DNA of 64,000 nucleotides from Acidobacteriota bacterium (GTDB lineage: Bacteria; Acidobacteriota; UBA6911; RPQK01; JAJDTT01): contig OZ253580.1 in assembly GCA_965263035.1 (NCBI GenBank), positions 1,600,001 to 1,664,000 of the forward strand, read 5' to 3'. Below, one piece after another: positions 8,406-61,780 of this stretch. Position numbers and translations under genes: made by a program. Position 1 is the stretch's first letter. Each line of letters starts with the position of its first letter. Under the pieces are notes generated by a model, which saw nothing but the letters and a program-made list of their open reading frames with translations, did not search any database and was not told the origin of the DNA.

Positions 8406-8409
8406 CTAG

Positions 8410-38897: not shown

Positions 38898-38925
38898 GAC
38901 CTTCGACTCCCTTCCGGAGAACCAG

Positions 38926-39084
38926 GAGTCTGCGCGGTAGGAATGATCGTAGCGAGAAATCGGGGAATCGAGGCCAGATTTTCTCGATTTTGAGGTGCAT
39001 AGTCGTTCTATTCGCCGAGAAATCGGGGAAATATGGACCGATTCTACCGCTTTCGCAGTAGATCAATTTCTGCCGCGCAGGCTC
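38926..39084 (-). mobile_element. 159-bp MITE, copy 1
   Basis: Reverse-complement copy of the 47315/49535/61590 element; ~23-bp imperfect TIRs; plus-strand flanks CCAG and CTAG. Confidence 0.93.
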
Positions 39085-39272
39085 CTAGGACGGATCGAAG
39101 AAACGAAGCCTGCCCGTATGTGGAGATCAGCCTATGGTTCGTTGAAGCCGGAGTCAACTTCCAGGAACCCTGCTTTCTTTCGGTTTCGGGATAGGAATAT
39201 CAGGCGGGATAGGATGGGGAGAGAACCAGGTCGTGAGCACCATATCCTTTCGACACAGCTGCCTTGTCCCCT

Positions 39273-39358
39273 CCGGGAGCGGCAGCTTTCCAGCCACCAG
39301 ACTCCGTTGGAACAATGCGGCAAGGCGGGAGCGCGCAACTGGGAAGTCGCCCCTCCAC
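39273..39358. repeat. Degenerate REPIN downstream of the four-gene operon
   Basis: GGGAGCGGCAGCTTTCCAGCCACC ... GCAACTGGGAAGTCGCCCCTCCAC. Confidence 0.65.
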
Positions 39359-39387
39359 GTCGCCTCTCCTGATTCTCCTGCGTTAAC

Positions 39388-39591
39388 TCACTCGGCGAAT
39401 TTCTGCACAGCCTTCGGGGCGAATGCAGCGACCAGGAAGTACAGGACGAGCTCGGTCTTGCCGCCCGACCCCCAGCCGAACACCTCGACGCACGCGAGCA
39501 CCGCCGCCACAATCAACGCCAACATGGACATCAGGCGCATTGCGGACGGATTGCCGCCGCTATCGGTCATGAACTTGCTCGAGTCACTCAT
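39388..39591 (-). CDS. 67-aa two-TM membrane protein, holin-like
   Basis: ATG 39591 after GGAGGA; MSDSSKFMTDSGGNPSAMRLMS-TM1-GWGSGGK-TM2-PKAVQKFAE. Confidence 0.75.
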   Translation of the reverse strand: MSDSSKFMTDSGGNPSAMRLMSMLALIVAAVLACVEVFGWGSGGKTELVLYFLVAAFAPKAVQKFAE

Positions 39592-39678
39592 GTCGTCCTC
39601 CAAATCCAAGAAAAAAAGGATGTTTCCGTTGAATCGCAGACGGCTCTTTTTACCGCGGCATTCCGCCGCAGGGTCACA

Positions 39679-40197
39679 CTATCCCGGGAGTCCCGCGATC
39701 CTGGTGGCGATCTTCAGGCTGATGGAGAACGCCTTGAAGATGCCGTTTACGAGTCCCGCCAACTCCTTGCGTTCCCGGACCTCCTGCGCCGCGGCGTCGA
39801 CGCCGGCGCGGAGGCCGTCCAGCTCGTCTGCGGTGAACAGCCGGTCCCACGTGAGCACGGCGCCGACGGTCAACGCGAACAGCTTCACGTTGATATCCCC
39901 CTTCTGCTCCAGGAGATCCGAGTATTCGCCCGCGTCGAGTTCGATGTCGTAGACGAGCCGGTCCTCGATGACCTCCCGCTCTTGCAGCAGGACTCTCTTG
40001 ACTTCGCCGCTCTCGGCGGACCCGGCTGTTCCGGCACTGCCGATCGCTTCCCGGACCCTCTCGATGGCAGCCAGCGCGGCGCTCTCCAATTCCGCCGTCT
40101 TGGCGTCCTTTCCCTGGTCCCGCAGGCCCGCGACCTCTCCAAAGAGAGAACGGGTGTCCTTGGCGATTCCCATCAGGTTGCCCATGTTCAAAGACAT
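39679..40197 (-). CDS. Hypothetical all-helical protein without signal peptide, amphipathic C-terminal helix
   Basis: 172 aa; GGAGG RBS inside the upstream gene end; 3 bp from the upstream stop. Confidence 0.8.
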   Translation of the reverse strand: MSLNMGNLMGIAKDTRSLFGEVAGLRDQGKDAKTAELESAALAAIERVREAIGSAGTAGSAESGEVKRVLLQEREVIEDRLVYDIELDAGEYSDLLEQKGDINVKLFALTVGAVLTWDRLFTADELDGLRAGVDAAAQEVRERKELAGLVNGIFKAFSISLKIATRIAGLPG

Positions 40198-40200
40198 TCC

Positions 40201-40890
40201 CTACTCCTCGGTCGGAACCAGTTCGATCGCCCGGTCCAGCACGTCCAGAAATTCCCGGAAGCCCTCCACAGCTTCCTCCAGGCGGTCCCGCTCTTTCTCG
40301 ACAACGGCCTCTGCCTTCTCCTGCTCGACCGCAGGCGACCTGCGGAGGCGCCGGGCCTCGGCCACGGCCAGGGCCACGCGGGACAGATCGATTTCGCCGA
40401 TCCGCTTGGACAGCGACGTGTCGGACAGGTACCGGGTCAGTTCCAACTGTCCGATCCGGAGCCGGCTGACCAGCGCGATCAGCCGGTCGAGCTCCGCCCG
40501 GCGTTGACCGTCGATCCCCCGGAGCCGGCGCAACTGGGCCGCCGAGACTTCATCGGCCGCCAGGTCGATCTCGGCGAGACGCATGAGAACCGCTGTCCGG
40601 AACGGCTCCTTCGTCCAAGACGTCCGCAGGCGCAGGGCAAGCTCGGCATGCTGGAACTCGCGGCGCGTGAGCCGTGCCTGAGTCAGCTCCGACTGAACCG
40701 CCCCGAAATAGAACTCCATGGCCTCCTGCCAAGCCTGTTTGTCGTGCCGTAGTTTCTTTTCGATCCGGTCCAGCGCGCCGGTGATCTTCTCGGACAACTG
40801 AACGAGTCCCGCGGGGGCGTCTTTGGCGGGGGCAGCGCCGGCGGACAGAGGCAGGAGTACGAGGGCGAAGAGCGTGGATGCGCGCGTCAT
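40201..40890 (-). CDS. Hypothetical secreted coiled-coil protein
   Basis: 229 aa; signal peptide MTRASTLFALVLLPLSAGA; ATGA overlap with the upstream gene. Confidence 0.8.
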   Translation of the reverse strand: MTRASTLFALVLLPLSAGAAPAKDAPAGLVQLSEKITGALDRIEKKLRHDKQAWQEAMEFYFGAVQSELTQARLTRREFQHAELALRLRTSWTKEPFRTAVLMRLAEIDLAADEVSAAQLRRLRGIDGQRRAELDRLIALVSRLRIGQLELTRYLSDTSLSKRIGEIDLSRVALAVAEARRLRRSPAVEQEKAEAVVEKERDRLEEAVEGFREFLDVLDRAIELVPTEE

Positions 40891-41423
40891 TGTGGTGTCC
40901 TCCCGTCCTGGCGCTTCAGAAGGCCGTCCAGACCGGTGCCGATCTCGGTCATTCGATCGGCGCTGGGACCGATGTCGGTCATGATGTACTCGTGAATCAA
41001 AGCCTGGCTCCGGTACAGGAGGTCCAACAGGCTGCTGAGAACGTCCATCTGCTCCTCGTGTTTCGGGCGCAGTTTCCGCAACGGGCCGGGGCGGCGCGCT
41101 TCCTGAGCCTGAATCTGCGCGATCCTCACGGCGACGGCGGCGGAAGCTCCCAGGGGATCGGGGTCATTGTTGGCCTTGACCGTCTCGACGGTGCGCTTCA
41201 GGACCCGGGCTTCTCTCCGTAATTCCATGGCCGAATCGAATAATTCATCCGCGTGGAGCTGATAGTCGGAGACGTTCTGTTGCGCGGACAGCAACCCCTC
41301 GAGCTGGGTGGCGGAAGCGTTCTTGATGTAGGTGGCTTTGGCACAGGCGGACAGCGGAAGAATCAGCACTGCGGCGAGCAGCAAGCGGCGGATTTCGTGC
41401 ATGGCAAGGCAAACGTGTTGCAT
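40887..41423 (-). CDS. Hypothetical helical lipoprotein
   Basis: 178 aa; RRLLLAAVLILPLSAC lipobox; GGAAGGGAG RBS. Confidence 0.8.
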   Translation of the reverse strand: MQHVCLAMHEIRRLLLAAVLILPLSACAKATYIKNASATQLEGLLSAQQNVSDYQLHADELFDSAMELRREARVLKRTVETVKANNDPDPLGASAAVAVRIAQIQAQEARRPGPLRKLRPKHEEQMDVLSSLLDLLYRSQALIHEYIMTDIGPSADRMTEIGTGLDGLLKRQDGRTPQ

Positions 41424-42185
41424 GGGTTCTCCCTTCCCGGATGACAGGGTGACGGAATTGGCCGGGTGGTCAACGGCCGCGAGCAGAGGTGCCGATACGC
41501 CCCGGTCCGAATTGAGTTCAGACAGGTAAGTGGAAGGCAGCGAAGCAGGAGAGCATGACCATTGCCGAAGAAGTTAGCACGAACGAGACGGAGATTGCTA
41601 CAGGTTGTGACCAACGCGTCCAACCCGGGCGGCAATTGACTGCGGATGCCGATCATCGCCGGCATCCGCGACACGCATGACGCCCGTTAGGCGGCGATTG
41701 GATGTTCGCTCTACATCAGAAAGCCCCAGACCAGTGCGCGGATCTTCTTCCCAGGGAGAGGAAACAAGAATTCACGCGGCAACTGACACGGATCGTTCGG
41801 GACCTTCCGGAATTGGACCTCCTTTGTCGTTGTGAAACCACTGGACGGAGAATGTGAAATGCAACTCAAGTGGACTATTCGTCTGGCGCAGGACGAGTTG
41901 GTTTAGAGGCAGTGGTCGCTCCGTTACGTGACGGAGTCGACTCAACGGTCTTGCTCTGGACATCGCATCAAAGCATCCAATGAATATTCTGTTAAAGTAT
42001 AGACTCCCAATGTGAACTTGTTGTGATTTATGAGTCTCACATAGTGACTATACCGTGATATTTCTTACAGGCGCCACCACTGGACCCGTACAAGCTCGAC
42101 GTGCCTCGTATCCGGATCCTCCGTCGAGCCCACGCATGGCGACGCCGAACCAGGTCTCACTCTTGAGGATGATGGGGGCGGACGG

Positions 42186-44543
42186 ATGAAGAGTCCCGAT
42201 GAGCTCAAAAAAGAGAACCAGGTGTTGCGGGAACGGATCTCCCAGCTGAGCGCCGCCAGCCTGCGCATCAGCGCGAGCCTCGACGTCGGCACTGTGTTGC
42301 GCGAGGTCGTGGAAAGCGCCCGCTCCCTGACCTGTTGTCGGTTTGGCGTAATTGTGACCATCGACGACTCGGGGCAGGTTCAGGACTTCGTTACTTCCGG
42401 CGTCACTCTGGACGAGAAGCAACGGATGTCGGACTGGGCCGACGGTCCCCGGCTCTTCGAGCATTTGCGGGACCTTCCGGAGTCACTGAGACTACGAGAC
42501 CTACCCAGCTACCTCCACTCACTCGACTTTTACCCAGACGAGATTCTGACGAAGACCTTCCAGGGAACGCCCCTGCGTTATCGGGGAGTGCATGTCGGCA
42601 ACTTCTTTCTAGGCGAGAAGGAAGGCGGACAGGAGTTCACGGGCGAGGACGAGGAGATTCTGGTGATGTTCGCTGCGCAGACAGCGACGGCCATCGCCAA
42701 TGCTCGCAAGCACCGGGACGAACAGCGGGCCCGGGCTGACCTGGAAGCCGTGATCGACACGTCGCCGGTGGGTGTTGTGGTCCTCGAGGCCAGGACCGGC
42801 AAAGTGGTGTCGTTGAATCGGGAGGCAAAGCGGATTGTCGGGAGCCTGCGCATGCCGGGCCAGCCCTTGGACCAGCTAACGGAGGTCATCACCTTGCGGC
42901 GCGCCGACGGCCAGGAGATCGCCTTCGCGGAGTTCCCCCTGGCGCAGGCGCTGGGCCTTGGCGAAACCGTACGCGCTGAGGAGGTCGTTCTCAAGGTCCC
43001 GGACGGACGAAGCGTCACGACCTTGGTCAACCTCACGCCGATTCGTTCCGAAGTCGGTGCAGTCGAATCCACGGTGGTCACCCTTCAGGACTTGGCGCAG
43101 CTGGAAGAGCTGGAGCGTTTAAGGGTCGAGTTCCTGAGCTTGGTGAGCCACGAACTTCGGACTCCGCTGACTTCCATCAAGGGCTCGACCGCCACGGTGC
43201 TGGGCACTTCGCAGGCCTTGGACCCGGCTGAGATGCTCCAGTTCTTCCGCATCATCGACGAGCAGGCCAATCACATGCGCGGCCTGATCAGCGACCTTCT
43301 GGACACGGGACGCATCGAGACCGGCATCCTGTCGGTCACCCTCGAGCCCACTGCGGTGGCCAGCTTGGTGGACCAAGCCCGGAATACGTTCCTGAGCGGG
43401 GGCGACAGGCACATCATCCAAATCGACCTGTCCCCGGAGCTGCCCCGGGTGATGGCCGACCGACGGCGCATTGTCCAGGTATTGAACAACCTCTTGGCCA
43501 ACGCGTCCCGGAATTCTCCCGAGTCGTCCCCAATCCGGATCTCCGCGGTTTGGGACGACGTTCACGTGGCGATCTCGGTATCGGACAGAGGCCGAGGGGT
43601 CCCGTCGGAACTGCTGCCGCACCTGTTCCGGAAGCACGCACGTGTCGCCAGCGGCGATCGTGGGATCGCAGGGTCCGGGCTCGGACTGGCCATCTGCAAG
43701 GGTCTGGTGGAGGCTCACGGGGGGCGCATCCGGGCCGAGAGTGGCGGGCCGGGGCTGGGTGCGCGGTTCACCTTCACGATTCCGGTGGCCGAAGACGCCG
43801 GGAACGGCGCAGCAGCCGGGGTCGCCCGCAGCACGACCCGCCCGACTCGGGTAGGGCGGGAGCGAACGCTCATCCTGGTGGTGGACGATGACCCGCACAC
43901 GCTCCACTACGTTCGGGACGCTCTGACGGCGGCCGGCTACGCCCCGCTCGTGACGGGAGACCCTCACGAGGTTTCCCAGATGATCAAGACGAAGAAGCCG
44001 CGACTGGTCCTACTGGACCTGATGTTGCCTGGGACCGATGGAATAGAACTGATGGAGCGCCTCCCCGAGCTGGCCGAGCTGCCAGTCATTTTCATCTCCG
44101 GCTACGGAAGGGACGAAACGATCGCGAGGGCATTGAAGGTCGGGGCTGCCGATTACATCGTCAAACCCTTTTCGCCGACGGAACTGGTGGCGAGAGTCCA
44201 GGCGGCCCTGCGCCGGAGCGACGAGCCGCGCGAACCCTTCCGGTTGCAGGACCTGGCCATCCACTACGAAGAACGCCGGGTGATCCTCGCCGGCCGTCCG
44301 GTGCAGCTGACGGTCACCGAATACGAGCTGCTCCGAGTGCTATCGGTCAACGCGGGACGGGTAGTGACCTACGAATCCCTGCTGCGCCAAGTCTGGGATG
44401 GGCGGGGGGGCGGCGACTTTCGTCCGGTGCGCGCCTTTGTGAAGAAGCTCCGTCACAAGCTGGGCGACAACGCGACCGGTCCAACGTACATCTTTACCGA
44501 GCGCCAAGTCGGTTACCGAATGGCCAAGCCAAGCGACTTGTGA
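42186..44543 (+). CDS. Hybrid GAF-PAS histidine kinase fused to an OmpR-type response regulator (REC plus winged helix)
   Basis: VSHELRTPL H-box, NLLANA, DRGRG and GSGLGL; REC VVDDD, LLDLMLP, KPF; wHTH LTVTEYELL...IFTERQVGYR. Confidence 0.92.
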   Translation: MKSPDELKKENQVLRERISQLSAASLRISASLDVGTVLREVVESARSLTCCRFGVIVTIDDSGQVQDFVTSGVTLDEKQRMSDWADGPRLFEHLRDLPESLRLRDLPSYLHSLDFYPDEILTKTFQGTPLRYRGVHVGNFFLGEKEGGQEFTGEDEEILVMFAAQTATAIANARKHRDEQRARADLEAVIDTSPVGVVVLEARTGKVVSLNREAKRIVGSLRMPGQPLDQLTEVITLRRADGQEIAFAEFPLAQALGLGETVRAEEVVLKVPDGRSVTTLVNLTPIRSEVGAVESTVVTLQDLAQLEELERLRVEFLSLVSHELRTPLTSIKGSTATVLGTSQALDPAEMLQFFRIIDEQANHMRGLISDLLDTGRIETGILSVTLEPTAVASLVDQARNTFLSGGDRHIIQIDLSPELPRVMADRRRIVQVLNNLLANASRNSPESSPIRISAVWDDVHVAISVSDRGRGVPSELLPHLFRKHARVASGDRGIAGSGLGLAICKGLVEAHGGRIRAESGGPGLGARFTFTIPVAEDAGNGAAAGVARSTTRPTRVGRERTLILVVDDDPHTLHYVRDALTAAGYAPLVTGDPHEVSQMIKTKKPRLVLLDLMLPGTDGIELMERLPELAELPVIFISGYGRDETIARALKVGAADYIVKPFSPTELVARVQAALRRSDEPREPFRLQDLAIHYEERRVILAGRPVQLTVTEYELLRVLSVNAGRVVTYESLLRQVWDGRGGGDFRPVRAFVKKLRHKLGDNATGPTYIFTERQVGYRMAKPSDL

Positions 44544-44626
44544 GGACCCGCTCTTCCGGGTCGAAAGAAACCGGCGTGCGAGCCCGCGAACGGTATTGGA
44601 TGCCGGAGGGACCTGTCCGCTCCCGG

Positions 44627-46051
44627 TCAAGACCGTCCGCCTATAGGCAAAAGCTCCACGCCTTCCCCCTCCTCGGGTCTCCTGATGCGGAAACGGACCG
44701 AAGTCACTTCCGATCCATGGGGACCGAATCGGTTCTTGAAGCCCTCCCGCTGGCCGACCATGAAGATGGAGCCGTCCTCCAGCACGCAGGCGCTGGGGTA
44801 GTAGGCCTTGGGATCGCACTTGAAGCCGCGTCCCGGCGCCGGTTTGACCCAGGTCTTTCCATTGTCGCGGCTGTAGATCACTTCTCCGTTGTTCGGCACC
44901 TTGGGATCGTCGCCGCTGAGTCTGTGGCGGCCTCCAAAGACGACGGCGGTGACCCCGTCGGGCGTCGCCACCACATCCCCCCGCCGGTACAATTTAAGGC
45001 CGAGAAACTCGCTTCCAAAGTTGGGATCTTCGATGATCGGGTCGGTCAGGAGCAGACGCGGCGGGGACCAGGTCCTTCCGTCGTCGTAAGACTGAAACCA
45101 GGCCGACGTCGGCCGGCAGGGGAAACCCAGGCTGCCGTCCGGCAGGTAGGCGGCCGTGCCTTCGTCCATATCGTAGTCATTGCTGCCGATCACCGACACG
45201 GTCGACCAGGTGCGGCCCATGTCCCCGGAGCGCATGAGGAGCATGAGCCAACGAGGGTATTCGCTGGACCATCCCTTTCCCCCAGGAATGGGTGAGGCGG
45301 AGGCGAAGAGCCGCAGCGAACCATCCTTGCCCTCGAACATGCTGTAGGGAGCGTCCATATCGGCGAGCCCGACGAAGCGTGTCACCTCCTTCCAGGTGTG
45401 GCCATTGTCGTCGCTTCGAAAGATGAGGGTCTTCGATTGCCGGTTGACCGCAATTCGGGCGTATTCGAGGGCAGTCAAGGGCATCTGGTTGAAGTAGCCC
45501 CAATGGGGTTTCAGGCGGGCTCCCGCAATCATCGTCCCGTCACTCAGCTGCACCACGTCACCGACGTAGTAGGCGCCAGGCACCACCGGAAACGAGCGGG
45601 GCCGGCTCCAGGTCTTCCCCTGGTCCCGGCTCCGGATCCACATCATCCTTCCGCCCTCGGGCGCATCCCAATCCACGAGCCATTCTCGATCCGGCCGTTT
45701 CAAGCGCTCCTGTGCCTCAGCAGGCATGTCCCAGGGGGTGGGCCAGGAAGCGTGCCAATAGCCGGCCGAGAAGGTCACGAACAGGTCGCCGTTCTGCAGC
45801 CGGCACACCGTCGGCCACCCGCAATAACCGCCAAACCCGGGGAAGGGATCCGGAGGGTTAACGTCGGGGGAGACGATGATCCGCCGGTACTTCTCGAAAT
45901 CGACCTTGGGCTCGCCGCCCGTAATCAAAGCCTCGACAGGTGGAATAGAAGCCGCGGCTGACTTCTTCTTGCCTGCTCTGACGAGACCGGTGGTTGCCAA
46001 TGCGGCTGCTGAAGTGGACAGATATTCGCGGCGGGTCAGTTGGACAGCCAT
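44627..46051 (-). CDS. Tat-exported sialidase-like BNR/Asp-box beta-propeller protein
   Basis: TRREYL twin-arginine signal; five S.D.G.TW Asp-boxes. Confidence 0.85.
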   Translation of the reverse strand: MAVQLTRREYLSTSAAALATTGLVRAGKKKSAAASIPPVEALITGGEPKVDFEKYRRIIVSPDVNPPDPFPGFGGYCGWPTVCRLQNGDLFVTFSAGYWHASWPTPWDMPAEAQERLKRPDREWLVDWDAPEGGRMMWIRSRDQGKTWSRPRSFPVVPGAYYVGDVVQLSDGTMIAGARLKPHWGYFNQMPLTALEYARIAVNRQSKTLIFRSDDNGHTWKEVTRFVGLADMDAPYSMFEGKDGSLRLFASASPIPGGKGWSSEYPRWLMLLMRSGDMGRTWSTVSVIGSNDYDMDEGTAAYLPDGSLGFPCRPTSAWFQSYDDGRTWSPPRLLLTDPIIEDPNFGSEFLGLKLYRRGDVVATPDGVTAVVFGGRHRLSGDDPKVPNNGEVIYSRDNGKTWVKPAPGRGFKCDPKAYYPSACVLEDGSIFMVGQREGFKNRFGPHGSEVTSVRFRIRRPEEGEGVELLPIGGRS

Positions 46052-46092
46052 CTCGTAGCTTCCTCGTTATACGAATTGAACTAATCGACCTA

Positions 46093-47311
46093 GTACCCCG
46101 TAACACTTAAAGTTGTGGATACAGGCTCTTCAGCTTGATCCGTGCATCCTCCGTCTTGAACTGCCAGTCGATCTCGGTTTGCCGTTGGTTCCGATCCGCA
46201 ACCCAAGCCCCGATCTCACGTTGCATCCCGGCCAGGCTTGGAATCCGGCGGTCCAGGCATTGTCCGCACAGCGCGCTCAATTCGATTTCTGCAATGTTGA
46301 GCCAACTGCCGTGCTTAGGCGTGTAGTGGATTTCCAGTCGTTGTGCCAGTTGGCGAGCGTGTCGAGGCTCGTAGGTCGCGTACAGCGATTCGATTCCGTG
46401 CGTGTTCAGGTTGTCCAAGACCAGGACCACCCGCTCGGCCTCCGGGTATCGCCTCTCCAACATGCCCTCGATCCACCGGGCCCAATCCTGTCGCGTGCGC
46501 CGCTCGGTCGCCTCCACATGGCAGCGGCCGGTCAGTGGCTCCACCTCCAGGAAGATCTGCGCGACCCCGTTGCGCACATACTCATGCTCGACTCGCTCCG
46601 GCTGGCCGGGCGCGACCGGCAAAGGCTCCCGCACTTCTCCGATCAACTGCTTGTTGGTCTCGTCCATGCAGACCACCGGACGACGGGGGTCGTACGGACG
46701 GGCATAGACTTCTAAAACGTCCTCCATGCAGGCTACGAATGCGGCGCTGCCCCGGGGCGGGATCCGCCAATACTTCTTCCGATGAGGCTGCAGTTGGTTT
46801 TTTTTAGCGTCCGCTGCACCGTCATCACCGACACCCGCTCGACCCAGCCCAGTTCCACTACTTTCTCCGCCAGCAGGCGCAGGGTCCAGCGCTTCCGTCC
46901 TGGCGGGGCCGGGGAGCAGGCCAAGGCGACCAGGCGAGCCTCGAACGCGCCGTCGAAGATCACTTTCCGCGGCGGCCGCACCCGCCGCTTGCGCTCCAAG
47001 GCGAACTCCAAACCCTGCTCCACAAACCGCCGTTTCAAGTGCTCGATCGTGCGGGCCGAGACGCCCAGCGCCTCGGCCACCCGGGCCACGGTCCATCCCG
47101 GCCCTTCCGGCCCGCGGTCGCACAACAACAGCGCCCGCGCGTACAGGAACCGCTTGCCGGTGGTCTTGGTCGCGGCCCGGGTCAAGGCCTTCAATTCTGA
47201 GCGCTCTTCCACAGTGAGCGTGACACGATAGCGTGGTGCCATGAGAACTCCTCCTTCCGAGTCCTCCAGCCTCCCACCATAGTATACGAACAATTACATG
47301 TTATTGGGTAC
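46093..47311 (-). mobile_element. IS630-family insertion sequence inserted in the TA of the CTAG flanking MITE copy 2
   Basis: TIRs GTACCCCGTAACA / TGTTATTGGGTAC (11/13); TA duplicated at 46091-92 and 47312-13. Confidence 0.9.
46107..47242 (-). CDS. IS630 transposase, two ORFs joined by a -1 frameshift at an A9 tract
   Basis: OrfA MAPRYRVTL..RWTLRLLA..QRTLKK; CTA AAA AAA AC slippery run at ~46798-46806; OrfB VCMDET, LDNLNTH, PKHGSWLNIAE (DDE). Confidence 0.9.
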
Positions 47312-47314
47312 TAG

Positions 47315-47473
47315 GAGCCTGCGCCGCAGAAATTGATCTACTGCGAAAGCGGTAGAAGCGGTCCATATTTCCTCGATTTCTCGGCGAATAGAACAACTAT
47401 GCACCTCAAAATCGAGAAAATCCGGCCTCGATTCCCCACTTTCTCGCTACGATCATTTCTACCGCGCAGACTC
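47315..47473 (+). mobile_element. 159-bp MITE, copy 2
   Basis: GAGCCTGCGCCGCAGAAATTGATC...GATCATTTCTACCGCGCAGACTC; flanks CTAG and CAAG. Confidence 0.93.
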
Positions 47474-48974
47474 CAAGCCCGAAGATATCTTCAGGCCTGC
47501 CTTGTTCTTTATCGCATACGGGGTTCCCCGTCTCTATCGGAACCGTGCGCCAAGGGCATGAAGACGGAACTGGACCGAGGGTCGGAGCCAGGAATTCACC
47601 GATGGGCGCCGGAATGTAAGGGTAGGAGCGGCGGCTTTCCAGGCACCGCTCCCCATCCGCCGAACTCCGGTGGAGCCAAGGGACGAGGAGGAACGGGGGA
47701 CAAGAATGTCCCCCTCCCAGCGGGGACGAGCCTGTCTTCACTCTTTCCTCTTTCCTTTATTTCTCAAGGAATCTCGGTAGCCCTGTAGACCACCATTTCC
47801 TCTCTCTTCGTGCCGATACCGGCAACTGCACCTAGTCCGGCTCCTATTGCGGTTCCGACCCCAGCTGTCATCAAGACCACCAACGCAACCCCAGCCAGAT
47901 TCAGGTCGCCAGCTCCGCTTTTGGCGATTCCGAACAAGGGCACACCGAGTCCAACTGCGGCTCCGATTTGGGCTCCCATTTTTGCCTTTTCTCCCACGCC
48001 ATCCATCTTCCGAGTGGTAATGGTCCGGACATCCGTTTTTGGAATGACCGCCCGAACGGAGCCGGTCTCGACGTCCAGCTCTGAAGCGAACAAGCCTTCC
48101 AAGTCTCCGATGACTTGATCTCCGTTCTTGAGCTCAACCGCAATCGGCGTTCCCAGATCCAGCTCGGATACCTTCTCCCAACGTCCTGGGATGACCTCCG
48201 CTCGCGCCGGCAGTGCGATCAGTACCACCAGGATCAAAGAGAAGACTTGCATCCGGCACGTTTTCATCATAGCGCTTGTCATCATGGCACCCACCTCCTT
48301 GAAGTTTCTCCGCCACTCGCCGGCGGCGCCCAAGGTCACCGCCGAATCATGGATTTCCCGTCCCCTCAGGGCTCGGAGCGTCCCGGAGAAGGACAGCGAC
48401 TCGGTATCAGGAGATGTGATTTTTTCGTCGGAAGGGGCTCAGCCAAGCCGGAATGGGTTGGGCTGGACAGAACGCCGGGTTGCTTGGGAAAGAACGCCAC
48501 CAAATCCGTGAACTGCAGTGAACCGACTTGGGCCGGCCGGGGACAGGGCTACGTGATGGGCCGAAGACAGAGCATCCAGGTCAGTGAGGGAGTCTGGACC
48601 AAACCCACTGCCCGTGCTGCTTCCCGGTGTGGAGGCGTCCTGTATTTTCGACGGTTTCCTGGCCGCCGTCCTAGACCCATTTCAGGGTTCCGGCCCCCTG
48701 AGCCATGCCCTCGGCCCACTCGACCGTCCAACTCACAGTAGCGTCCGGCCGGAGGTTCGAAGTCCAGACATGGCATCCCGGTTGGTTAGACAACTCCCTC
48801 CAGCAGGCCGTGCCCTTCGGCGGGCCCGCGCACGTGGGTCTGCCCTGGAGCAAGGCCACCGACCCCGCTCGGGACTTCCGATCGGTGTCCGTCCCGGCCT
48901 GGGGAGGGCTCAACAGGACCCAGACAAGAACACTCGGAATCCCTAGGGGCATGGGAGTTTTCTCCCGTGTGTCA
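47474..48974. repeat. Duplicated cassette, copy A (left edge displaced to ~46080 by IS630 plus MITE)
   Basis: Colinear with 49185..50580; near-identical over 47474-47760, includes a GTAG REPIN at 47622..47720 and ends in the CATGGGAG-TTTT-CTCCCGTG hairpin. Confidence 0.88.
47764..48285 (-). CDS. 173-aa secreted protein: small beta domain plus glycine-zipper membrane segment
   Basis: ATG after AAGGAGG; signal ..ALPARA; VIPGRWEKV..VELKNGD; GAQIGAAVG..GTAIGAGLG glycine zippers. Confidence 0.82.
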   Translation of the reverse strand: MMTSAMMKTCRMQVFSLILVVLIALPARAEVIPGRWEKVSELDLGTPIAVELKNGDQVIGDLEGLFASELDVETGSVRAVIPKTDVRTITTRKMDGVGEKAKMGAQIGAAVGLGVPLFGIAKSGAGDLNLAGVALVVLMTAGVGTAIGAGLGAVAGIGTKREEMVVYRATEIP

Positions 48975-49462
48975 TTTGGGCGGAGATGGGGACGCGTGCC
49001 CGTCACCAGTGCCGAACCGCCTCGGACCCGGCCGGTCCGAGGCTGCAACGACTGACGGAACCGACGCCGCTGCAGCGACGGGCGATAGAGTTGATCCAGG
49101 CGTTCCCAGTGACGACCAAAGCAGCTTCGTGACTTATCCTTTTATAATCAAGGAGTTATGTTGTCTTCGTGTCTGGAACTTCGGACTAATCGACCAAGCC
49201 CGAAGATATCTTCAGGCCTGCCTTGTTCTTTATCGCATACGGGGTTCCCCGTCTCTATCGGAACCGTGCGCCAAGGGCATGAAGACGGAACTGGACCGAG
49301 GGTCGGAGCCAGGAATTCACCGATGGGCGCCGGAATGTAAGGGTAGGAGCGGCGGCTTTCCAGGCACCGAACTCCGGTGGAGCCAAGAGACGAGGAGCAA
49401 CGGGGGACAAGAATGTCCCCTCCCAGCGGGGGCGAGCCTGTCTTCACTCTTTCCTATATTTC

Positions 49463-50147
49463 TCAAGGAATCTCGGGAGCTTCGTAGATCACGATTGCCA
49501 TACTTTTCATGCCGGCATCGGCAACGGCACCTAGGAGCCTGCGCCGCAGAAATTGATCTACTGCGAAAGCGGTAGAATCGGTCCATATTTCCCCGATTTC
49601 TCGGCGAATAGAACAACTATGCACCTCAAAATCGAGAAAATCTGGCCTCGATTCCCCACTTTCTCGCTACGATCATTTCTACCGCACAGACTCCTAGCCC
49701 AGCACCAATTGCTGTTGCGATCCCAGAAAATACCAGCGTGTAAAACACCACACCGGCCCCAGTCAGATCGCCGGTTCCATTGGCGGCAAAGTCGGCCAAA
49801 GAGACGCCGGCACCAACTGCAGCGCCGACTGCGGCGCCAATGGCGGCTCCGTTACCCAGACCATCCTTCGGCTGAATTGAAATTGTCTGGATGGCCTCTT
49901 TCGGAATGACCACTCGAACGGAACCCGTCTCGATGTTCACCCCTGACGCGGACAGACCTACAAAATGCCCTTCGAGTGGATCCCCATTCTTCAGTTCCAA
50001 CGTGATGCGCGCTTCCAAGTCCAGATTTGCGACCTTCTCCCAGCGTCCCGGGATCACCCCGGCCCGCACCGGCTGCAAGATCAGACCCGCCAGGATCAAT
50101 GAGACGATTTGCAGCCGATACGACTGAATCAACTTTCCGTTCATCAT
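49463..50147 (-). pseudogene. Paralog of 47764..48285 interrupted near its 3' end by MITE copy 3
   Basis: Removing 159+4 bp restores a 522-bp ORF, the same length as the paralog, ending GLGAVADAGMKSMAIVIYEAPEIP*. Currently the frame stops inside the MITE at 49626. Confidence 0.88.
49535..49693 (+). mobile_element. 159-bp MITE, copy 3
   Basis: CTAG on both flanks (49531, 49694); interrupts a CDS. Confidence 0.95.
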
Positions 50148-50624
50148 GGCATCACCTCCTCGGAGTTCCCCCACGACCCGTCGGTGACGCTCACGGTTAC
50201 CAACGAATCATGGATCGCTTGTCCTCCTCAGGGTTCGGGCAACCGCGAAGGAAAACAGTGACTCGATATCAAGATATGTGATTTTTTCGTCGGAATGAGC
50301 TCAGCGAAGCCGGCAAGGGTTGAGGATTACAGAACGCAGGGTTGCGTGGGAAGGAAAGTCACCACATCGGTGAATTGCAGTGAACCGATTTGGCCCGGCC
50401 AGGACAGGATAGCGTGGTGGCCCGACGACAGGCCATCCAGGTCAGTGAAGAGGGTCTGAACCAAACCCACTGCCCGGCCGGTCGGGCTGAATAGCTCTGA
50501 CGGACTGGGGAGCGCTCAACAATATCAAGACAAGAACGCTCGAAATTCCTATGGACATGGGAGTTTTCTCCCGTGTGTCAGTTGTGAAATCCAGGGTTGG
50601 TTGCCCTGGATGGGCGGCATCGCC

Positions 50625-54478: not shown

Positions 54479-54613
54479 GGATTGACCTTGTTCTCAGGAT
54501 GTGGAAGTGGACTCACCCGTCGCCGATCGATCTGCTCGGGCGGGAAAACCGCGCCCCGGCCGCAGGGGTCCGGCCCGGCGTTTCTGCGGCTGAAACACCC
54601 GTCGCGTTGAAGC

Positions 54614-56428: not shown

Positions 56429-56511
56429 TCGCTCCTCCCCTACGAAATAGTCGCCAGGACCAGACGAAATGCTCGCCAGAGACTAACGCCTGGGGGGTCT
56501 CCGGTCAATCG

Positions 56512-56602
56512 CAGGAGCGGCGGTTTCCAACCGCCGACAGGAGCGGCGATTTCTAATCGCCGATTCGGGGACGCAGGGGGACAAGACTGTCCCCCTTCCT
56601 AG
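56512..56602. repeat. REP cluster (two tandem REPs and one inverted)
   Basis: CAGGAGCGGCGGTTTCCAACCGCCG, CAGGAGCGGCGATTTCTAATCGCCG and GGGGGACAAGACTGTCCCCCTTCC. Confidence 0.8.
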
Positions 56603-59600
56603 TCCGACCTCCCAGTCGAACCGGTCAGGAAGCTCAACAGGTGGGACATATCCGTCACGCTGATCTCCTCTTCCAGGCCTTCCGGCATGCCGGACACGCT
56701 GGAGACGAACATGGCGCGGATGTTCTCCCGCGGAATTGCGGTTTCCGAGCCGTCTTCCCTGCGGAGCGTCACCGATACGGGAGTCTGGGAAGCGATGACC
56801 CCTTCCTGCAGAACTCCGTTGTTCAACTCCACCACGTACAGTTGGTAGTTGTCCGCGATGGCCCGGCTCGGCAGCATGATGTCCGCCAGCAATTCCTGCC
56901 GCGACCGATGCCGCACCGGCGCCAGATCGGGTCCGAACCCGGCGTCCGTGCCCTCGATCTCGTGACATGTTTCGCAGTTCTTCTCGAAGACCGCGGCGCC
57001 CTGAACCGAATCCCCCGCGACACCCAAAGCGGCCCGGTACCGCTCCAGGGCGGCGAGCCGGCGCTTGTCCAGCTTGCGCATCAGGTCATGGACCCGAGCC
57101 CGGATCGGCGGGTCCGCGTGCATCACCAGGCGCGACTTGTGCCTCTGGCTGATGGTCCAGAAAGGCACGTCTTCATTCTCGATCGCCGTCATCAGGAGCT
57201 CGACGGTCTCCGGCTTGGAGAGCAGCGTCGCGGCGGCTCCCAGGCGTACGCCCGTCGTCATCTCCCTCCATTTGGAAATCAGCAGTGTCCCCACCTCGTC
57301 GCTTTCCGTCTGCGCCATTGCCCGGACCGCGGCGACCTGGACTCCCTCCGGTTCCTGGGGATCCAGCAGTCCGGCCAACAGGTCGAACCTGGATTTTCCA
57401 TCCAGAAGCGCCAGGAGACGCACCGAATCGGCCCTCAGAGCCGGGGCCAGCGCGCGGTCCTCGATCCTGGCCAGGACTCGATCCGTACGGGACTTCCCCA
57501 CCGGGCTCAGCGGCTTCGGCGCCAGATCCAGGAGCCGTAGCGCCGCGCTTCGGAGCAGCGGTGAGGACGCCTCGGCCAACGCCAGCAGACGCCGGATCGC
57601 GAGGCCTCGAGTCCGGTCGTCTCCCGAGCCCTGCCGAATCCCCTGGGCCAGCCCCTCCAGGCTGGCCGCGCGCCACCAGTCGGAATTCGGCTTGCCCCGT
57701 TTGGAGACCCGTTCGAAGAGCCGCCGGATCGCCGCAGGATCGCCCGCCGCGCCGACGAGCGCCCCGATCTGGCGGAAGAACTCGACCCTCTGTTTCGACG
57801 CCGATTCTGAGAACTCGGACACGGCCAGTTCCAGCAGCTCGAGCGGGCGGAGTGCGGATGCGCTCAGCGCCGCGAGCTGCACCCAGGGGTCTTCCATGTC
57901 CCGCAACAGCAACTGGCGGCTCGCCCGGCGCGCTGCCGGGGAATCCAGCCAACCCAGCGTGCAGAGCAGCTGGAAGCGCACCGCCGGTTGGGCGTCCTCC
58001 GTCATCGCCAGCAGCTCCTCCACCAGACCGGGTGCCTGGTCCAATCTCGCCTCCGCCAACCGGATCCCGTTTTCCCGGATCCCGGGTTCCGGGTCCTTGA
58101 GAGCTTGCCGGATGTCGGAAGGTGCCAGGCCGCCCAGACCGTCGAGGGTCCACAGAGCATGCAGCCGGGTGTCGGCACCGGGACTTGCGTGGAATATCTC
58201 CCTGAGCCGATCGACCGCTTCCCGACTCTGGCGGTCCAACAGCATTCGCTGCGCATGAGTCCTCCACCAGGCATTGGGATGGTCCAGGGACTCCACCAGC
58301 TCCACGTCCGAAGCCCGGCTCATCGCCAGGCTCGGATTCCAGGGCACGGGATTCTCCGAGTCCGGAGTGATCCGGTAGATCCGGCCGTGCTGCTCCCCCT
58401 CGTAGAGAGCCTCAGGTCCCCGCCCCGGGTCGTGGAACTCGTCCGACATCCATTCCGGGTGCTCGATGATCCGACGGTAGTAGTCCACGACGTAAAGGGC
58501 TCCGTCCGGTCCCACGTAGACGAAGACGGGCCGGAACCAATGATCCGTGGAGGCCAGAAACTCCGTCTCATCCTGAACCCGGCTGGCTTGCAGGGTGACC
58601 CCGCCCTCCTTGAGGACGTCGCAGTGAACCAGGTTGTGGGCCGGGTCGGCCACGAAGGAGGCCTGATCGTACGGGGAGGGAAAAAGGCCGCCGGAATAGA
58701 CGGCGATTCCGCAGGCCGAAGTGAAGTTCCCGATGTCGGTCAGGATTCGATGTTTCGGGTTCAGAGTGACCGGATAGACGCGAGGCGGATGATCGGAGAC
58801 GTCTTTGGAGGTGGCGGCGGCGCGCAGCGCAGGGTTTCGGCTCAGATAGGGAGCGGCCAGGACCTGCTGGCGGATGTGCCGGACGCTGTTCAGAGTCAAC
58901 AGGCGTCCCCAGCGATCGAAACTCAAGCCGAAACCACTGCTTCCGGAAACCGCCTCCAGTTCATGCGTGTCGGGCCGAAAACGGAGATTGCCGATTCGGT
59001 TCTCCAGTTGAACGCCCTTTTCTCGGCCGGGGAACCGGATCCTGGATCCCTCGTCGCCGAACTTTTCCCGGAAAATAACGGTCCTGATGGGGGGCTCGTG
59101 AGCCAGGTAGATCCAGTTGTCCAGCCCGTAGCGCGGGTTGCTCACCGTGTGCTGCGGGTTGGTCAGGGCGAAACCGGTCAGAACGGCGGATTTGATGTCG
59201 GCCCGGTTGTCTCCGTCGCTGTCCTCCAGATACCAGACGTCCGGAGCATCGGTCACCAACACCCCATTTTTCCAACGCAGGACTCCCGTCGGCAGCGTCA
59301 GCCCGTCGGCGAAGACCGTGCTGCTGTCCGGCAGTCCGTCGCCGTCGGTGTCTTGCAGCAACTTCACGCGGCCGTTCCTTCCCGTATCGAGCGGGTAGCC
59401 GATCATTTCCACCACGTAGACGCGGCCCTGCTCGTCGATCTCCATGGCGATCGGATCTTGAATCAGGGGTTCCGCGGCGAAGACCTCGATTCGGAAGCCC
59501 GCTTCCAGGACGAAAGTCTCAAGCGCTTCTTGCGGGCCGAAAGGGGGGCCGGGCCGGGCGCATGCGGAGAGCAGCAGCGTCGTTCCCAGAAGGGCATAGA

Positions 59601-59652
59601 GCGCACGCCGCCATGTCGGCGGAGCCGGTTTCGGTACCGGTTGAATGAGCAT
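56599..59652 (-). CDS. PVC-type membrane-bound dehydrogenase / heme-c (CxxCH) lipoprotein with HEAT repeats
   Basis: Lipobox LLSAC, FAAEPLIQDP, DTDGDG, FRPV..GPDGALYVVD, CETCH, GPDL and SGMPEG. Start set at ATG 59652 to avoid the overlap given by the ORF track. Confidence 0.9.
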   Translation of the reverse strand: MLIQPVPKPAPPTWRRALYALLGTTLLLSACARPGPPFGPQEALETFVLEAGFRIEVFAAEPLIQDPIAMEIDEQGRVYVVEMIGYPLDTGRNGRVKLLQDTDGDGLPDSSTVFADGLTLPTGVLRWKNGVLVTDAPDVWYLEDSDGDNRADIKSAVLTGFALTNPQHTVSNPRYGLDNWIYLAHEPPIRTVIFREKFGDEGSRIRFPGREKGVQLENRIGNLRFRPDTHELEAVSGSSGFGLSFDRWGRLLTLNSVRHIRQQVLAAPYLSRNPALRAAATSKDVSDHPPRVYPVTLNPKHRILTDIGNFTSACGIAVYSGGLFPSPYDQASFVADPAHNLVHCDVLKEGGVTLQASRVQDETEFLASTDHWFRPVFVYVGPDGALYVVDYYRRIIEHPEWMSDEFHDPGRGPEALYEGEQHGRIYRITPDSENPVPWNPSLAMSRASDVELVESLDHPNAWWRTHAQRMLLDRQSREAVDRLREIFHASPGADTRLHALWTLDGLGGLAPSDIRQALKDPEPGIRENGIRLAEARLDQAPGLVEELLAMTEDAQPAVRFQLLCTLGWLDSPAARRASRQLLLRDMEDPWVQLAALSASALRPLELLELAVSEFSESASKQRVEFFRQIGALVGAAGDPAAIRRLFERVSKRGKPNSDWWRAASLEGLAQGIRQGSGDDRTRGLAIRRLLALAEASSPLLRSAALRLLDLAPKPLSPVGKSRTDRVLARIEDRALAPALRADSVRLLALLDGKSRFDLLAGLLDPQEPEGVQVAAVRAMAQTESDEVGTLLISKWREMTTGVRLGAAATLLSKPETVELLMTAIENEDVPFWTISQRHKSRLVMHADPPIRARVHDLMRKLDKRRLAALERYRAALGVAGDSVQGAAVFEKNCETCHEIEGTDAGFGPDLAPVRHRSRQELLADIMLPSRAIADNYQLYVVELNNGVLQEGVIASQTPVSVTLRREDGSETAIPRENIRAMFVSSVSGMPEGLEEEISVTDMSHLLSFLTGSTGRSD

Positions 59653-59705
59653 GGACCGCACTCTTTCCCGAGCCCGAAAAAGTCGATCGCCGACGCTACG
59701 AAGAG

Positions 59706-60737
59706 TCATTGTGCACGGGGAATCACGGACTGCTGACCCGCCGCCTGAAGTTTTCTTCTCATCTTGTCGAGCATGTCGTCGACCATGCCGTCGATGTCGT
59801 ACTCGGGGTTCCATCCCCATTCCCGCCGGGCGGCGCTGTCGTCGAGTGAGCGGGGCCAGGAGTCGGCGATCGCCTGGCGGAGCGGGTCGATCTCGTAGTC
59901 CATCTTGAATTCGGGGATCCTTTTCCGAATGGCGGCGGCCAGTTCCGCGGGGGTGAAGCTCATGGCGGCGACGTTGAAGTCCGCATGGTGACCGAGCTGC
60001 AAGAAATCGGCTTCCGCCAAGTCGATGATCGCCTTGACGGCATCCGGCATATACATCATCGGGAGACGGGTTTCGGGCGCGAGGAAACAGGTGTACCGCT
60101 GCTCTCGAATGGCCCCGAAAAAGATCAGGACGGCGTAGTCCGTGGTACCCGCGGTCGGCTCCTGGTCCATGCAGCTGACGATTCCCGGCAGCCGCAGGCC
60201 GCGAACGTCCAGGCCCACCTTCGTCGAGTAGTAGTTCCCCAGCAGCTCGCCGAACACCTTGGCGATTCCATAGAGGGTGTTCGGCTTCTGGATGGTGTCG
60301 TTGGGGGTGGGATCACGGGGCGTCTCCGGACCGAACGCCGCGATGGAACTGGGGGCGATGACCCTCTCCACCCCGCAGGCGTGAGCGCCCTCCAGGACAT
60401 TGTAGAGGCCATTGATGTTGACCTCGTGCCCGCGCTGCCGTTCCTGCTCCGCCAGTGCGGAGAGGATGGTGCTCAGGTGATGGATGGTGCCGATCTCGTA
60501 TTTCCGGATCGTGTCTACGATCTGGCCATAGTCGGTCACATCGACCACGGTGGTGGGACCGTTTCTGATCGTTGCATCGGGCAGCGGCGTCCTGTGGCCG
60601 GCCGCCACCACCGTCTCGCTCCCGTAACGCTCTCTCAACGCGGGAACCAGGTCCTGACCGATCTGACCGGCCGCGCCGGTGACCAATATTCGCTTCATGG
60701 GCTGGTCCCACAAGGTGCGGGAAATGACACGCGTCAT
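59706..60737 (-). CDS. NAD-dependent epimerase/SDR, L-threonine 3-dehydrogenase-like (start may be 60698)
   Basis: ILVTGAAGQIG, PSSIAAFG, YGIAK, GTTDYAV, LPMMYMPDA and RQAIADSWP motifs. Confidence 0.9.
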   Translation of the reverse strand: MTRVISRTLWDQPMKRILVTGAAGQIGQDLVPALRERYGSETVVAAGHRTPLPDATIRNGPTTVVDVTDYGQIVDTIRKYEIGTIHHLSTILSALAEQERQRGHEVNINGLYNVLEGAHACGVERVIAPSSIAAFGPETPRDPTPNDTIQKPNTLYGIAKVFGELLGNYYSTKVGLDVRGLRLPGIVSCMDQEPTAGTTDYAVLIFFGAIREQRYTCFLAPETRLPMMYMPDAVKAIIDLAEADFLQLGHHADFNVAAMSFTPAELAAAIRKRIPEFKMDYEIDPLRQAIADSWPRSLDDSAARREWGWNPEYDIDGMVDDMLDKMRRKLQAAGQQSVIPRAQ

Positions 60738-61300
60738 CCTTCCTGCGGTTCAGTTTCGGCCCCGGCACCACCTTGTTGCAGGGAACCGGAAACTCGTTCC
60801 ACTGCTTGCCGAAATGATTTCGGATCGATCGCCGGATATCGATTGAGCTTGGACTCGATTGCGGCAAAAAGACGCATCAGAGTCTCCGGCTCGATCCACC
60901 CGCCTCGACCCAGCGCTTCGACGTCCATCAGATCCTGGGAATGGCGCCGCTCTATCTTTGCGAGCGCTTGAGAATACGGATCGTAGTGATAGAAGGACAT
61001 CCTTCCCTCACGATCAGCGAACAGACTTCGTTCCCGCCACCCGGGAAGCTCGGGGATGAAGTCGGCCGGTGACGCCAACTCCACGTTAATTTCCAGATCC
61101 TCTTTCAGCCGCGGAACCGCCCTGAAGACCTGATCGGTTTCGGGAAAGAACCGGATATCCACGTCGACTGTGGTTGAGCGCCAGCCCAGGAGAACCGCAG
61201 TCGCTCCGCCCGTAAAGTAAAGCCGGGTCTCGACCGGCGCCGCTCTGCCGACCGCGCGCATGAATCGTCGGATTCGATCCAGGTCTGCTAGTTTGCGCAT
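60734..61300 (-). CDS. DUF6036-like nucleotidyltransferase (putative toxin)
   Basis: YFTGGATAVLLGWRSTTVDVD (GG..DxD), ALAKIER...D..D. Confidence 0.75.
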   Translation of the reverse strand: MRKLADLDRIRRFMRAVGRAAPVETRLYFTGGATAVLLGWRSTTVDVDIRFFPETDQVFRAVPRLKEDLEINVELASPADFIPELPGWRERSLFADREGRMSFYHYDPYSQALAKIERRHSQDLMDVEALGRGGWIEPETLMRLFAAIESKLNRYPAIDPKSFRQAVERVSGSLQQGGAGAETEPQEG

Positions 61301-61563
61301 TCAGCCGCCCGCTCGAAGCTGACAAGCCGCCGGATCAGCGCGTTGTATTTTGAATGGGCCCCGTCAGGATCGGATCGGGCGAGCCGCAGATACAGTTTGA
61401 TTTCCGGTGAACGGATGACCTGTCTGGGAACGGGAAGCCCAATTTGTCGCAATCGGGGTGCGCCTATTGAGACCAACAGCGCAGGCACCGTCGCCGCTCC
61501 GCGCTGGAGGTCCTCGATTCCCTCCCGGACGATTTCGACTCCAGGGAATCTCTCCATATCCAT
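61288..61563 (-). CDS. 91-aa hypothetical protein overlapping the nucleotidyltransferase (putative antitoxin/partner)
   Basis: PG..IVREGIEDL...ALLVSIGAPRL...YNALIRRLVSFERA; 13-bp overlap with the downstream gene. Confidence 0.7.
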   Translation of the reverse strand: MDMERFPGVEIVREGIEDLQRGAATVPALLVSIGAPRLRQIGLPVPRQVIRSPEIKLYLRLARSDPDGAHSKYNALIRRLVSFERAAECAN

Positions 61564-61589
61564 GGCCTCATTTTATCAGCCGACGCTGG

Positions 61590-61748
61590 GAGCCTGCGCC
61601 GCAGAAATTGATCTACTGCGAAAGCGGTAGAATCGGTCCATATTTCCCCGATTTCTCGGCGAATAGAACAACTATGCACCTCCAAATCGGGAAAATCTGG
61701 CCTCGATTCCCCACTTTCTCGCTACGATCATTTCTACCGCGCAGACTC
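61590..61748 (+). mobile_element. 159-bp MITE, copy 4
   Basis: Same element; flanks CTGG and CTAG. Confidence 0.93.
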
Positions 61749-61780
61749 CTAGGCTCGATTTGGCTCCTCGGGACCTTCCT

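Follow-up and report, generated by a model that had tools for sequence, protein, structure and literature searches.

Where do the differences between the two flanks of a mobile element come from? The question is raised by a 64,000-nt stretch of an Acidobacteriota genome (contig OZ253580.1, positions 1,600,001 to 1,664,000; hereafter the window, numbered from its first letter), which carries four copies of a 159-bp MITE (a miniature transposable element with inverted repeats) with ends like those of the IS1182 family of insertion sequences (IS). A preliminary description, made from the letters alone, had proposed that the element always brings CTAG with it, in the form of a donor-derived 4-bp core, swapped with a nearly matching target in the manner of a coupling sequence. 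Repeat finding and alignment bore out the observations from which that proposal started: the copies are each exactly 159 bp, show 95-100% pairwise identity, and have the flank pairs CTAG/CTGG, CTAG/CAAG, CTAG/CTAG and CTGG/CTAG in element orientation. The repeat has imperfect inverted ends of ~35 nt, lacks coding capacity and is predicted to fold into a long hairpin (z = -3.4). Its end motif, GAGYCTGCGCNGYAGAAAT, has 8 matches in the window, compared with 0.15 expected from shuffles.

Species-representative genomes were scanned with this end motif, which returned at least 99 stretches (designated by L numbers); the cross-genome counts given here rest on the matches listed. Among these were at least 32 additional full-length copies of the 159-bp MITE, in nine Acidobacteriota assemblies, and MITEs from several phyla that have these ends but differ in length (38-267 bp). 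The 36 copies of the 159-bp family comprise 12 with CTAG/CTAG flanks, 4 with perfect non-CTAG pairs and 20 with mismatched flanks, so that mismatch recurs well beyond the window. CTAG is retained on one side of 16 of the 20 mismatched copies; the other four have it on neither side, which is at odds with an element that always brings CTAG. Our tentative answer is that the disagreement has three sources: outer bases that are not duplicated, as the flanks directly demonstrate; a likely erosion of CTAGG toward CCWGG after insertion; and chimeric flanks of the TA/AA type, which would be laid down at insertion itself.

Length of the target duplication

Flank positions were numbered d1 to d4 outward from the 159-bp core, the canonical bases being G, A, T and C, and were compared in 67 of 69 elements (134 ends); L006 and L020 were dropped as shifted or degenerate. 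The central dinucleotide was TA/TA in 37 elements, a perfect non-TA pair in 6 and mismatched in 24. The d1 base deviated at 1 of the 134 ends, and d4 at 12 ends, never with a matching change at the opposite end (p = 0.003). Were four base pairs duplicated, or carried over from the donor as a core, d1 and d4 should deviate equally often; counts of 1 and 12 argue against both, and at most the central 2 bp can be duplicated or exchanged. A true CTAG duplication, of the kind listed for the IS5 group and for ISPse1, should also leave the same four bases on both sides, at non-CTAG targets too, and the flanks did not show this. The invariance of d1 indicates that it belongs to the inverted repeat, which then reads GGAGYCTGCGC and bounds a unit of 161 bp. 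A 3-bp duplication was ruled out in either register, as the outer positions vary without their partners. We conclude that the target is C-TA-G, with duplication limited to its central TA; the outer C and G represent target context plus the terminal base of the repeat.

A 4-bp repeat is tabulated for a captured IS1182-family member, ISPse1 (PMC3281130). At a palindromic CTAG the 2-bp and 4-bp readings are indistinguishable. As a separate observation on the target, position -7 from the core, three bases outside CTAG, is G in 22 of 35 complete 16-nt left flanks; its mirror on the right is unclear (C in 12 of 36). This base may reflect an extended or an asymmetric target preference.

Age and origin of the flank mismatches

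The mismatches are too frequent for copies as young as these. Private substitutions number 27 in 5724 sites (0.47%), from which 0.66 central mismatches would be expected; 14 were seen (p = 5e-15), about 20 times the neutral decay. Copy age was unrelated to mismatch (p = 0.96), and flank mismatches were present in each of three elements that are identical to one another (L059, L064 and L086). Between genomes, copies retain an average identity of 92%, set against 66-75% for shared host genes, which bounds the age of the family. Neutral decay of a 4-bp duplication is thus ruled out by both rates and age. Recombination between copies was also considered as an origin of chimeric flanks and judged implausible, since most copies would have to be rearranged.

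Most of the deviations are transitions, and their context is specific. T>C at d3 accounts for 21 ends, and d3 always lies within CTAGG because the repeat starts with G. At d2, A>G accounts for 10 ends, of which 8 have the extra C that makes the changed site CCTGG, compared with a 31% baseline (p = 0.002); unpaired transition ends split 17 to 6 (p = 0.035). In the window, the right CTGG flank of copy 1 is a change of this CCWGG-creating kind, and the left CTGG of copy 4, preceded by G and not C, is the sole window flank outside that context. Three elements (L040, L014 and L025) have the d3 change at both ends, giving flanks of the CCAG/CTGG type that no duplication can yield.

In E. coli, the rarity of CTAG, the excess of CCWGG and the deficit of CTWGG are attributed to very-short-patch (VSP) repair. 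CTAG is likewise the most depleted tetranucleotide of the window (20 occurrences, 66.9 expected; observed/expected 0.30), and 9 of the 20 lie at boundaries of IS elements or MITEs; mobile elements supply nearly half of the CTAGs of the window. Outside elements, observed/expected CTAG is 0.24 in the window, 0.24 in CBDCJH and 0.10 in OZ241897.1, the record with the fewest CTAG/CTAG copies (3 of 17), in which the ratios for CCWGG, CTAGG and CTTGG are 1.35, 0.04 and 0.68. This pattern suggests that most mismatches arose by fast erosion of CTAGG to CCAGG after insertion, on either strand, through a VSP-like bias of T:G to C:G, and the same bias would explain the depletion of CTAG. As for post-insertion mutation, which the preliminary description had listed as the alternative to its own proposal, neutral decay fails, and VSP-type drift fits CTGG and CCAG flanks, though not CAAG.

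Transversions make up a smaller class of 13 ends. Four of these form two perfect duplications, CTTG/CTTG in L021 and CGAG/CGAG in L090; the remaining nine are unpaired and represent the window and at least five other genomes. The unpaired cases are CTAG/CAAG (copy 2, L022 and L081), CAAG/CTAG (L088), CCAG/CAAG (L050), TTAG/CAAG (L060 and L071), CGAG/CTAG (L059) and CGAG/CTGG (L074). The neighbouring d1 base shows no comparable mutation.

For copy 2 the window offers an empty site for comparison. Two paralogous cassettes, A and B, provide two such sites, an empty CTAG at 47832 and an empty CAAG at 49195, and both proved to be real. The left flank of copy 2 is interrupted by an IS630-family element, inserted in the TA of its CTAG; with that element removed, the filled site reads actaatcgacCTAG-MITE-CAAGcccgaag, and its empty paralog reads actaatcgacCAAGcccgaag. 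The AA side of copy 2 thus appears to be target-derived and the TA side new. This control comes with a caveat. Positions 47473-47648 and 49194-49369 are 100% identical (176 nt), while the remaining cassette is 74-89% identical, so that what looks like a gene-conversion tract adjoins copy 2; the control is not fully independent and is weakened accordingly. On the left, homology at the empty CAAG extends for only 10-11 nt, to the start of the repeated unit. Two further records (L010 and L019) were examined as a source of empty sites; they contain window genes at 66-75% identity, in a different order, with no empty sites.

In the reading that we tentatively prefer, which is also the simplest, chimeric flanks of this kind would arise through staggered cuts made by the transposase across the duplicated TA. 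The excised element would then bring along 2-nt 5' flaps (TA) of donor origin, and at near-cognate sites, C-AA-G for example, these flaps would be ligated opposite the target bases; replication would split the resulting heteroduplex into one donor-type and one target-type flank. That an ISKpn6-like transposase excises in this way, with donor flaps ligated and not resynthesised, and so writes a new CTAG at near-cognate targets, is possible, and we put it forward with considerable doubt. The earlier notion that a donor-carried flank is exchanged with a near-matching target would then survive in a 2-nt TA version, supported by the empty CAAG of copy 2 and by the nine chimeric flanks, and not as a 4-bp core. 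In the literature on CTAG targets of IS1182, IS1182 MITEs, ISKpn6 duplications and mismatched target duplications, we found no description of such flanks, and a review of MITEs makes no mention of IS1182, IS630 or CTAG.

Several points weigh against carry-over of donor TA. Its basis is nine flanks and a single empty site, and because that site adjoins the tract of complete identity, the CAAG of cassette B may have been copied from the right flank in cassette A, or the reverse. Five of the oriented copies have AA beside the GAGTC end and one has it beside the other end, and CTTG never occurs in element orientation in the 159-bp family; a symmetric flap model predicts neither. The commonest case needs a flap with a terminal T:T mismatch, and the transitions would favour the opposite geometry, so that one rule cannot cover both classes. 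Many such heteroduplexes should also be removed by mismatch repair. The record names (whole chromosomes, 'contig_N') suggest that long-read assemblies may be the source of most chimeric copies. All four combinations of subfamily markers are present (L059, L099, L091 and L075), which indicates that copies recombine and that the private-substitution clock may run slow or be partly reset. As to the erosion, no vsr or dcm gene was seen among the 39 window open reading frames (ORFs) scanned.

The simplest competing account is classical transposition and nothing else: TA or a near-cognate dinucleotide is duplicated, and the flanks diverge later through VSP-like erosion, with CAAG arising through an A>T hotspot, conversion or chance. 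The transition class is well accounted for in this way, six perfect non-TA duplications show that duplication does occur, and a context-specific hotspot would place the AA flank mostly on one end, as the 5 to 1 bias does; the conversion tract beside the copy-2 empty site is compatible with it, and recombining copies may be older than they look. Against this, the account requires that T>A or A>T changes arose independently seven times at one flank position in at least five genomes (the window, CBDCJH, CBDCLS, OZ241897.1 and JAZFTL), next to an invariant base with a single change in the whole set of ends; CTAGG>CTTGG matches no known repair bias; for copy 2 it needs a mutation plus a conversion that stopped exactly at the element. 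We consider it rather unlikely as a full explanation. More improbable is an artefact of assembly or base calling, in which all true flanks are CTAG and a modified CTAG or CTAGG was miscalled in some assemblies. Mismatches are also present in isolate genomes and in records with short-read-like contig names (L005, L023, L029, L047, L061 and L074), and the deviations are varied (CTGG, CCAG, CAAG, CGAG, CTAT and CTAA), not one miscall; private differences within the elements are only 0.47%, and the CCWGG excess and CTWGG deficit extend across 70 kb of flanking DNA. What such an artefact would explain is the concentration of deviants in OZ241897.1 (14 of 17 copies not CTAG/CTAG), the loss of one base from a CC run where the L006 element ends and, through a systematic error common to both, the agreement of the right flank of copy 2 with its paralog, which have the same downstream context.

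Two other schemes have the element carry more of its flank. The donor-derived 4-bp CTAG core agrees with the 16 mismatched copies that keep one CTAG side and with copy 2 compared with its empty site, yet it predicts outer and inner deviations at 1:1 where the counts are 12 to 1, and it does not provide for the four mismatched copies wholly without CTAG. Perfect duplications at non-CTAG targets are also found (L010, L094, L087, L090, L093 and L021); the first two, both CTGG/CTGG, have no private substitutions and so are the young perfect duplications that the preliminary description had named as telling against its own model. Nor is the analogy with a coupling sequence supported, as the partner enzymes are DDE transposases and no recombinase is associated with the element. 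We regard the 4-bp core as very improbable. The last scheme is an asymmetric unit of 163 bp (TAG + 159 bp + C) that enters bluntly between C and WAG without any duplication; the left TAG would then always belong to the element and the right flank would be pure target. Both empty sites of the window fit it, non-TAG triplets are more numerous on the right than on the left (17 versus 10 among 35 copies), and AA lies mostly on the right; but those ten non-TAG left flanks, CGAG and CAAG among them, contradict it, and matching non-TA pairs number 4, where ~1.0 is expected under independence by hand calculation. With inverted repeats and a target that are symmetric, and blunt insertion unusual for a DDE enzyme, we give it hardly any credence. 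Carry-over of donor TA is retained as a tentative source of the chimeric flanks, beside duplication of TA and VSP-like erosion.

Identity of the element and its neighbours in the window

Among the matches, two full-length elements, L024 (1554 bp) and L066 (1544 bp), have the ends of the MITE and CTAG/CTAG flanks. Their transposases score 361.4 and 323.9 bits, respectively, with the IS1182 model NF033551 (cut-off 270) and fall under the cut-offs of IS5-family models; the domains in these relatives are DUF772, DDE_Tnp_1 and DDE_Tnp_1_6, not DDE_3. The same ends and flanks are found in ISKpn6 (L100), whose boundaries read CTAG-GAGCCTGCGCGGCAGA...GCCGCGCAGACTC-CTAG, and in a Halomonas plasmid IS; between the transposases of L024 and ISKpn6 the identity is 52%. 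The ends of the MITE surround an IS1182-family gene in both L100 and L101. These relatives support the resemblance to a DDE element of the IS1182 family noted in the preliminary description, and L024, L066 and ISKpn6 are autonomous IS elements with matching ends of the kind it had called for. The 159-bp repeat has the features of a MITE: it is short, gene-free and multicopy, with terminal inverted repeats and ends common to transposase-coding elements. Its sequence identifies it as a non-autonomous MITE of the ISKpn6-like subgroup of the IS1182 family, which would need a transposase in trans, and the shared ends suggest mobilisation by an IS1182-type transposase. An IS630-family origin was ruled out, as the window IS630 ends in GTACCCC, unlike the MITE, and the relatives' transposases lack DDE_3. 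No cognate full-length element for the 159-bp MITE was seen in the 64-kb window; an Rfam search of the whole window and a DNA search of a plasmid collection with the MITE gave no match.

In the Klebsiella pneumoniae plasmid record (L100, 546-2095), ISKpn6 lies beside the KPC carbapenemase gene, and its terminal 16 bases are those of the MITE. ISKpn6 occurs at 116 places in 108 E. coli genomes, with a median of one per genome, and all 40 places listed are annotated as ISKpn6 transposase. The ISKpn6-like branch thus spans Acidobacteriota, marine Gammaproteobacteria and clinical plasmids. The smallest relatives, of 38-39 bp, consist of two inverted ends back to back, with CTAG-like flanks and one perfect CTTG/CTTG pair (Table 1).

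Table 1. Coordinates of the MITE copies, associated elements and empty sites in the window, and of minimal relatives in other records
Feature	Position	Strand	Flanks and remarks
MITE copy 1	core 38926-39084; 161-bp unit with terminal G/C of the inverted repeat 38925..39085	-	C-TA-G left, C-TG-G right (element orientation)
MITE copy 2	core 47315-47473; unit 47314..47474	+	left C-TA split by IS630; right dinucleotide AA (47475-47476), giving CTAG/CAAG
MITE copy 3	core 49535-49693; unit 49534..49694	+	CTAG/CTAG
MITE copy 4	core 61590-61748; unit 61589..61749	+	CTGG/CTAG; intergenic
IS630-family element, 1219 bp	46093..47311	-	TA/TA; NF033545, 136.7 bits; DDE_3 and HTH domains
Empty CTAG site, cassette A	47832..47835		cacCTAGtcc; paralog of the filled copy-3 site; 80% identity
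Start of cassette B with empty site actaatcgacCAAGccc	49185..49369		CAAG 49195-49198; paralogous to the copy-2 site
Second IS1182-family element, 1771 bp	6635..8405	-	CTAG/CTAG; intact 501-aa transposase (6827-8332); NF033551, 423.2 bits (cut-off 270)
109-bp MITE-like derivative of the 6635-8405 element	8410..8518		same ends; CTAG 8406-8409 common to both; CTAG at 8519
Minimal elements in L021, L033, L035 and L058	1982-2019		
Minimal element in L051	2001-2038		
Minimal element in L071	1882-1920		

The surroundings of the copies are ordinary chromosomal genes, encoding glutamate synthase, EF-G, Lgt, hydantoinases and regulators. Near the start of the window, a region with a large ORF of fibronectin-type/phosphatase-like character contains diverged direct repeats (64-3337 and 1728-2360) of 76-82% identity, spaced by 333 and 2623 nt. 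Copies 1, 2 and 4 are intergenic; copy 3 alone lies in an ORF, where it interrupts the 3' end of a small reverse-strand gene (49626-50174) and substitutes for its C-terminus. Protein comparison of this ORF with its paralog at 47764-48339 gave 51% identity as far as the insertion point. The region 46080-50584 is a tandem duplicated cassette of ~1.5 kb encoding a small, glycine-rich putative secreted protein, the paralogs being 51% identical. Over the first 186 nt of the cassette the duplicates show 100% identity, compared with 74-89% elsewhere, which points to recent gene conversion or to strong constraint on the upstream part.

That an IS630 element interrupts the left flank of copy 2 was confirmed by its profile score and TA/TA flanks (Table 1). 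Its transposase is divided between two frames, 46733-47293 and 46107-47123, whose overlap spans a run of seven T (T7; A7 in the coding strand) at ~46800 (46790-46810), a feature more suggestive of programmed frameshifting than of a broken gene. An IS630-family element also adjoins the left end of a MITE through GTAC-TA-G in L099 (1-758, OZ241897.1), as it does in the window at 46093-47311, and the two sequences are 92% identical over 468 nt, with flanks that are not orthologous. L099 was ruled out as an orthologous filled site of copy 2, since the flanks part after 8 bases. The pairing may represent either two IS630 hits into CTAGs made by the MITE or a recurrent association. The suggestion that MITE flanks act as CTAG landing pads is upheld by these two cases, in both of which IS630 lies within such a flank.

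The window contains a second IS1182-family element, at 6635-8405, with an intact transposase gene. Its ends, GAGSCTGTCCGAGAA, have only GGAGCCTG in common with those of the 159-bp MITE, and it is probably not the cognate partner. This element and its 109-bp derivative lie head to tail, with a single CTAG at each of three junctions. A similar arrangement is seen in L030 (3320-3375), where the right end of a 1346-bp element is followed by CCAG and the left end of the next element, head to tail as at window position 8406. Among the loci fetched by the MITE end-motif scan, the sister family with GAGSCTGTCCGAGAA ends was represented by the window copies only.

Relation to known transposition and repair systems

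Overall, this is an ordinary IS1182-family MITE that poses a modest mechanistic puzzle. Its family includes ISKpn6, which adjoins a major carbapenemase gene. If only TA is duplicated and the repeat begins with GGAG, the published '4-bp CTAG' repeats of the IS1182 family need re-reading, and programs that rely on perfect 4-bp repeats to call elements will overlook at least a third of the copies. The flanks of young MITEs are also a natural reporter of a CTAGG>CCAGG repair bias in uncultured Acidobacteriota. If carry-over of the donor TA is true, the element rebuilds its own rare target word in a genome that purges CTAG, and provides fresh CTAG landing pads for the MITE and for IS630.

The closest known relatives are ISKpn6 and similar IS1182 elements, with which the MITE has the first 16 bases of its inverted repeat (GAGCCTGCGCGGCAGA) and CTAG/CTAG flanks in common. 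Unlike ISKpn6, the window element is gene-free at 159 bp and would be served by a transposase in trans, and unlike the tabulated IS1182 repeat of 4 bp, only the central 2 bp act as a duplication here. In its C-TA-G target and TA duplication the MITE resembles IS630/Tc1-mariner elements; IS630 prefers CTAG, and the window IS630 used such a site. It differs from IS630 in that the inverted repeats are unrelated (GTACCCC... and GGAGCC...) and in its likely partner, an IS1182-type enzyme and not one with DDE_3.

The E. coli VSP system is matched in the depletion of CTAG, the excess of CCWGG, the deficit of CTWGG and the CCWGG-creating flank changes. It is not matched in two respects: neither vsr nor dcm was seen in the 64-kb window or the short loci, and the rate implied at the MITE flanks is well above the substitution rate of the elements themselves. 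Tn916-type transposons use a tyrosine recombinase, a circular intermediate and a 6-bp coupling sequence, with no inverted-repeat/DDE system; what they have in common with the flap proposal is that donor-flank bases would travel along, form a heteroduplex at the new site and leave non-identical flanks.

Eukaryotic transposons offer the working analogy. PIF/Harbinger transposases are IS5-like, and donor-TA carry-over, if true, would link bacterial elements of the IS5/IS1182 type mechanistically with the seamless transposition of PIF/Harbinger and piggyBac, as its counterpart in prokaryotes. Tc1/mariner elements are described as cutting inside their ends and leaving footprints (PMC4561436, PMC7351741). 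The PIF/Harbinger element mPing has been proposed to excise through staggered cuts in its duplications, which leave duplication-derived 5' overhangs (PMC4561436), and piggyBac carries its TTAA overhang with it (PMC7351741). In both, overhangs on the excised element allow seamless excision and ligation at a new site, as would the flaps considered here; those overhangs, of 3 nt (TWA) and 4 nt (TTAA), belong to eukaryotic elements, whereas the flap proposed for the ISKpn6-like MITE would be 2 nt (TA).

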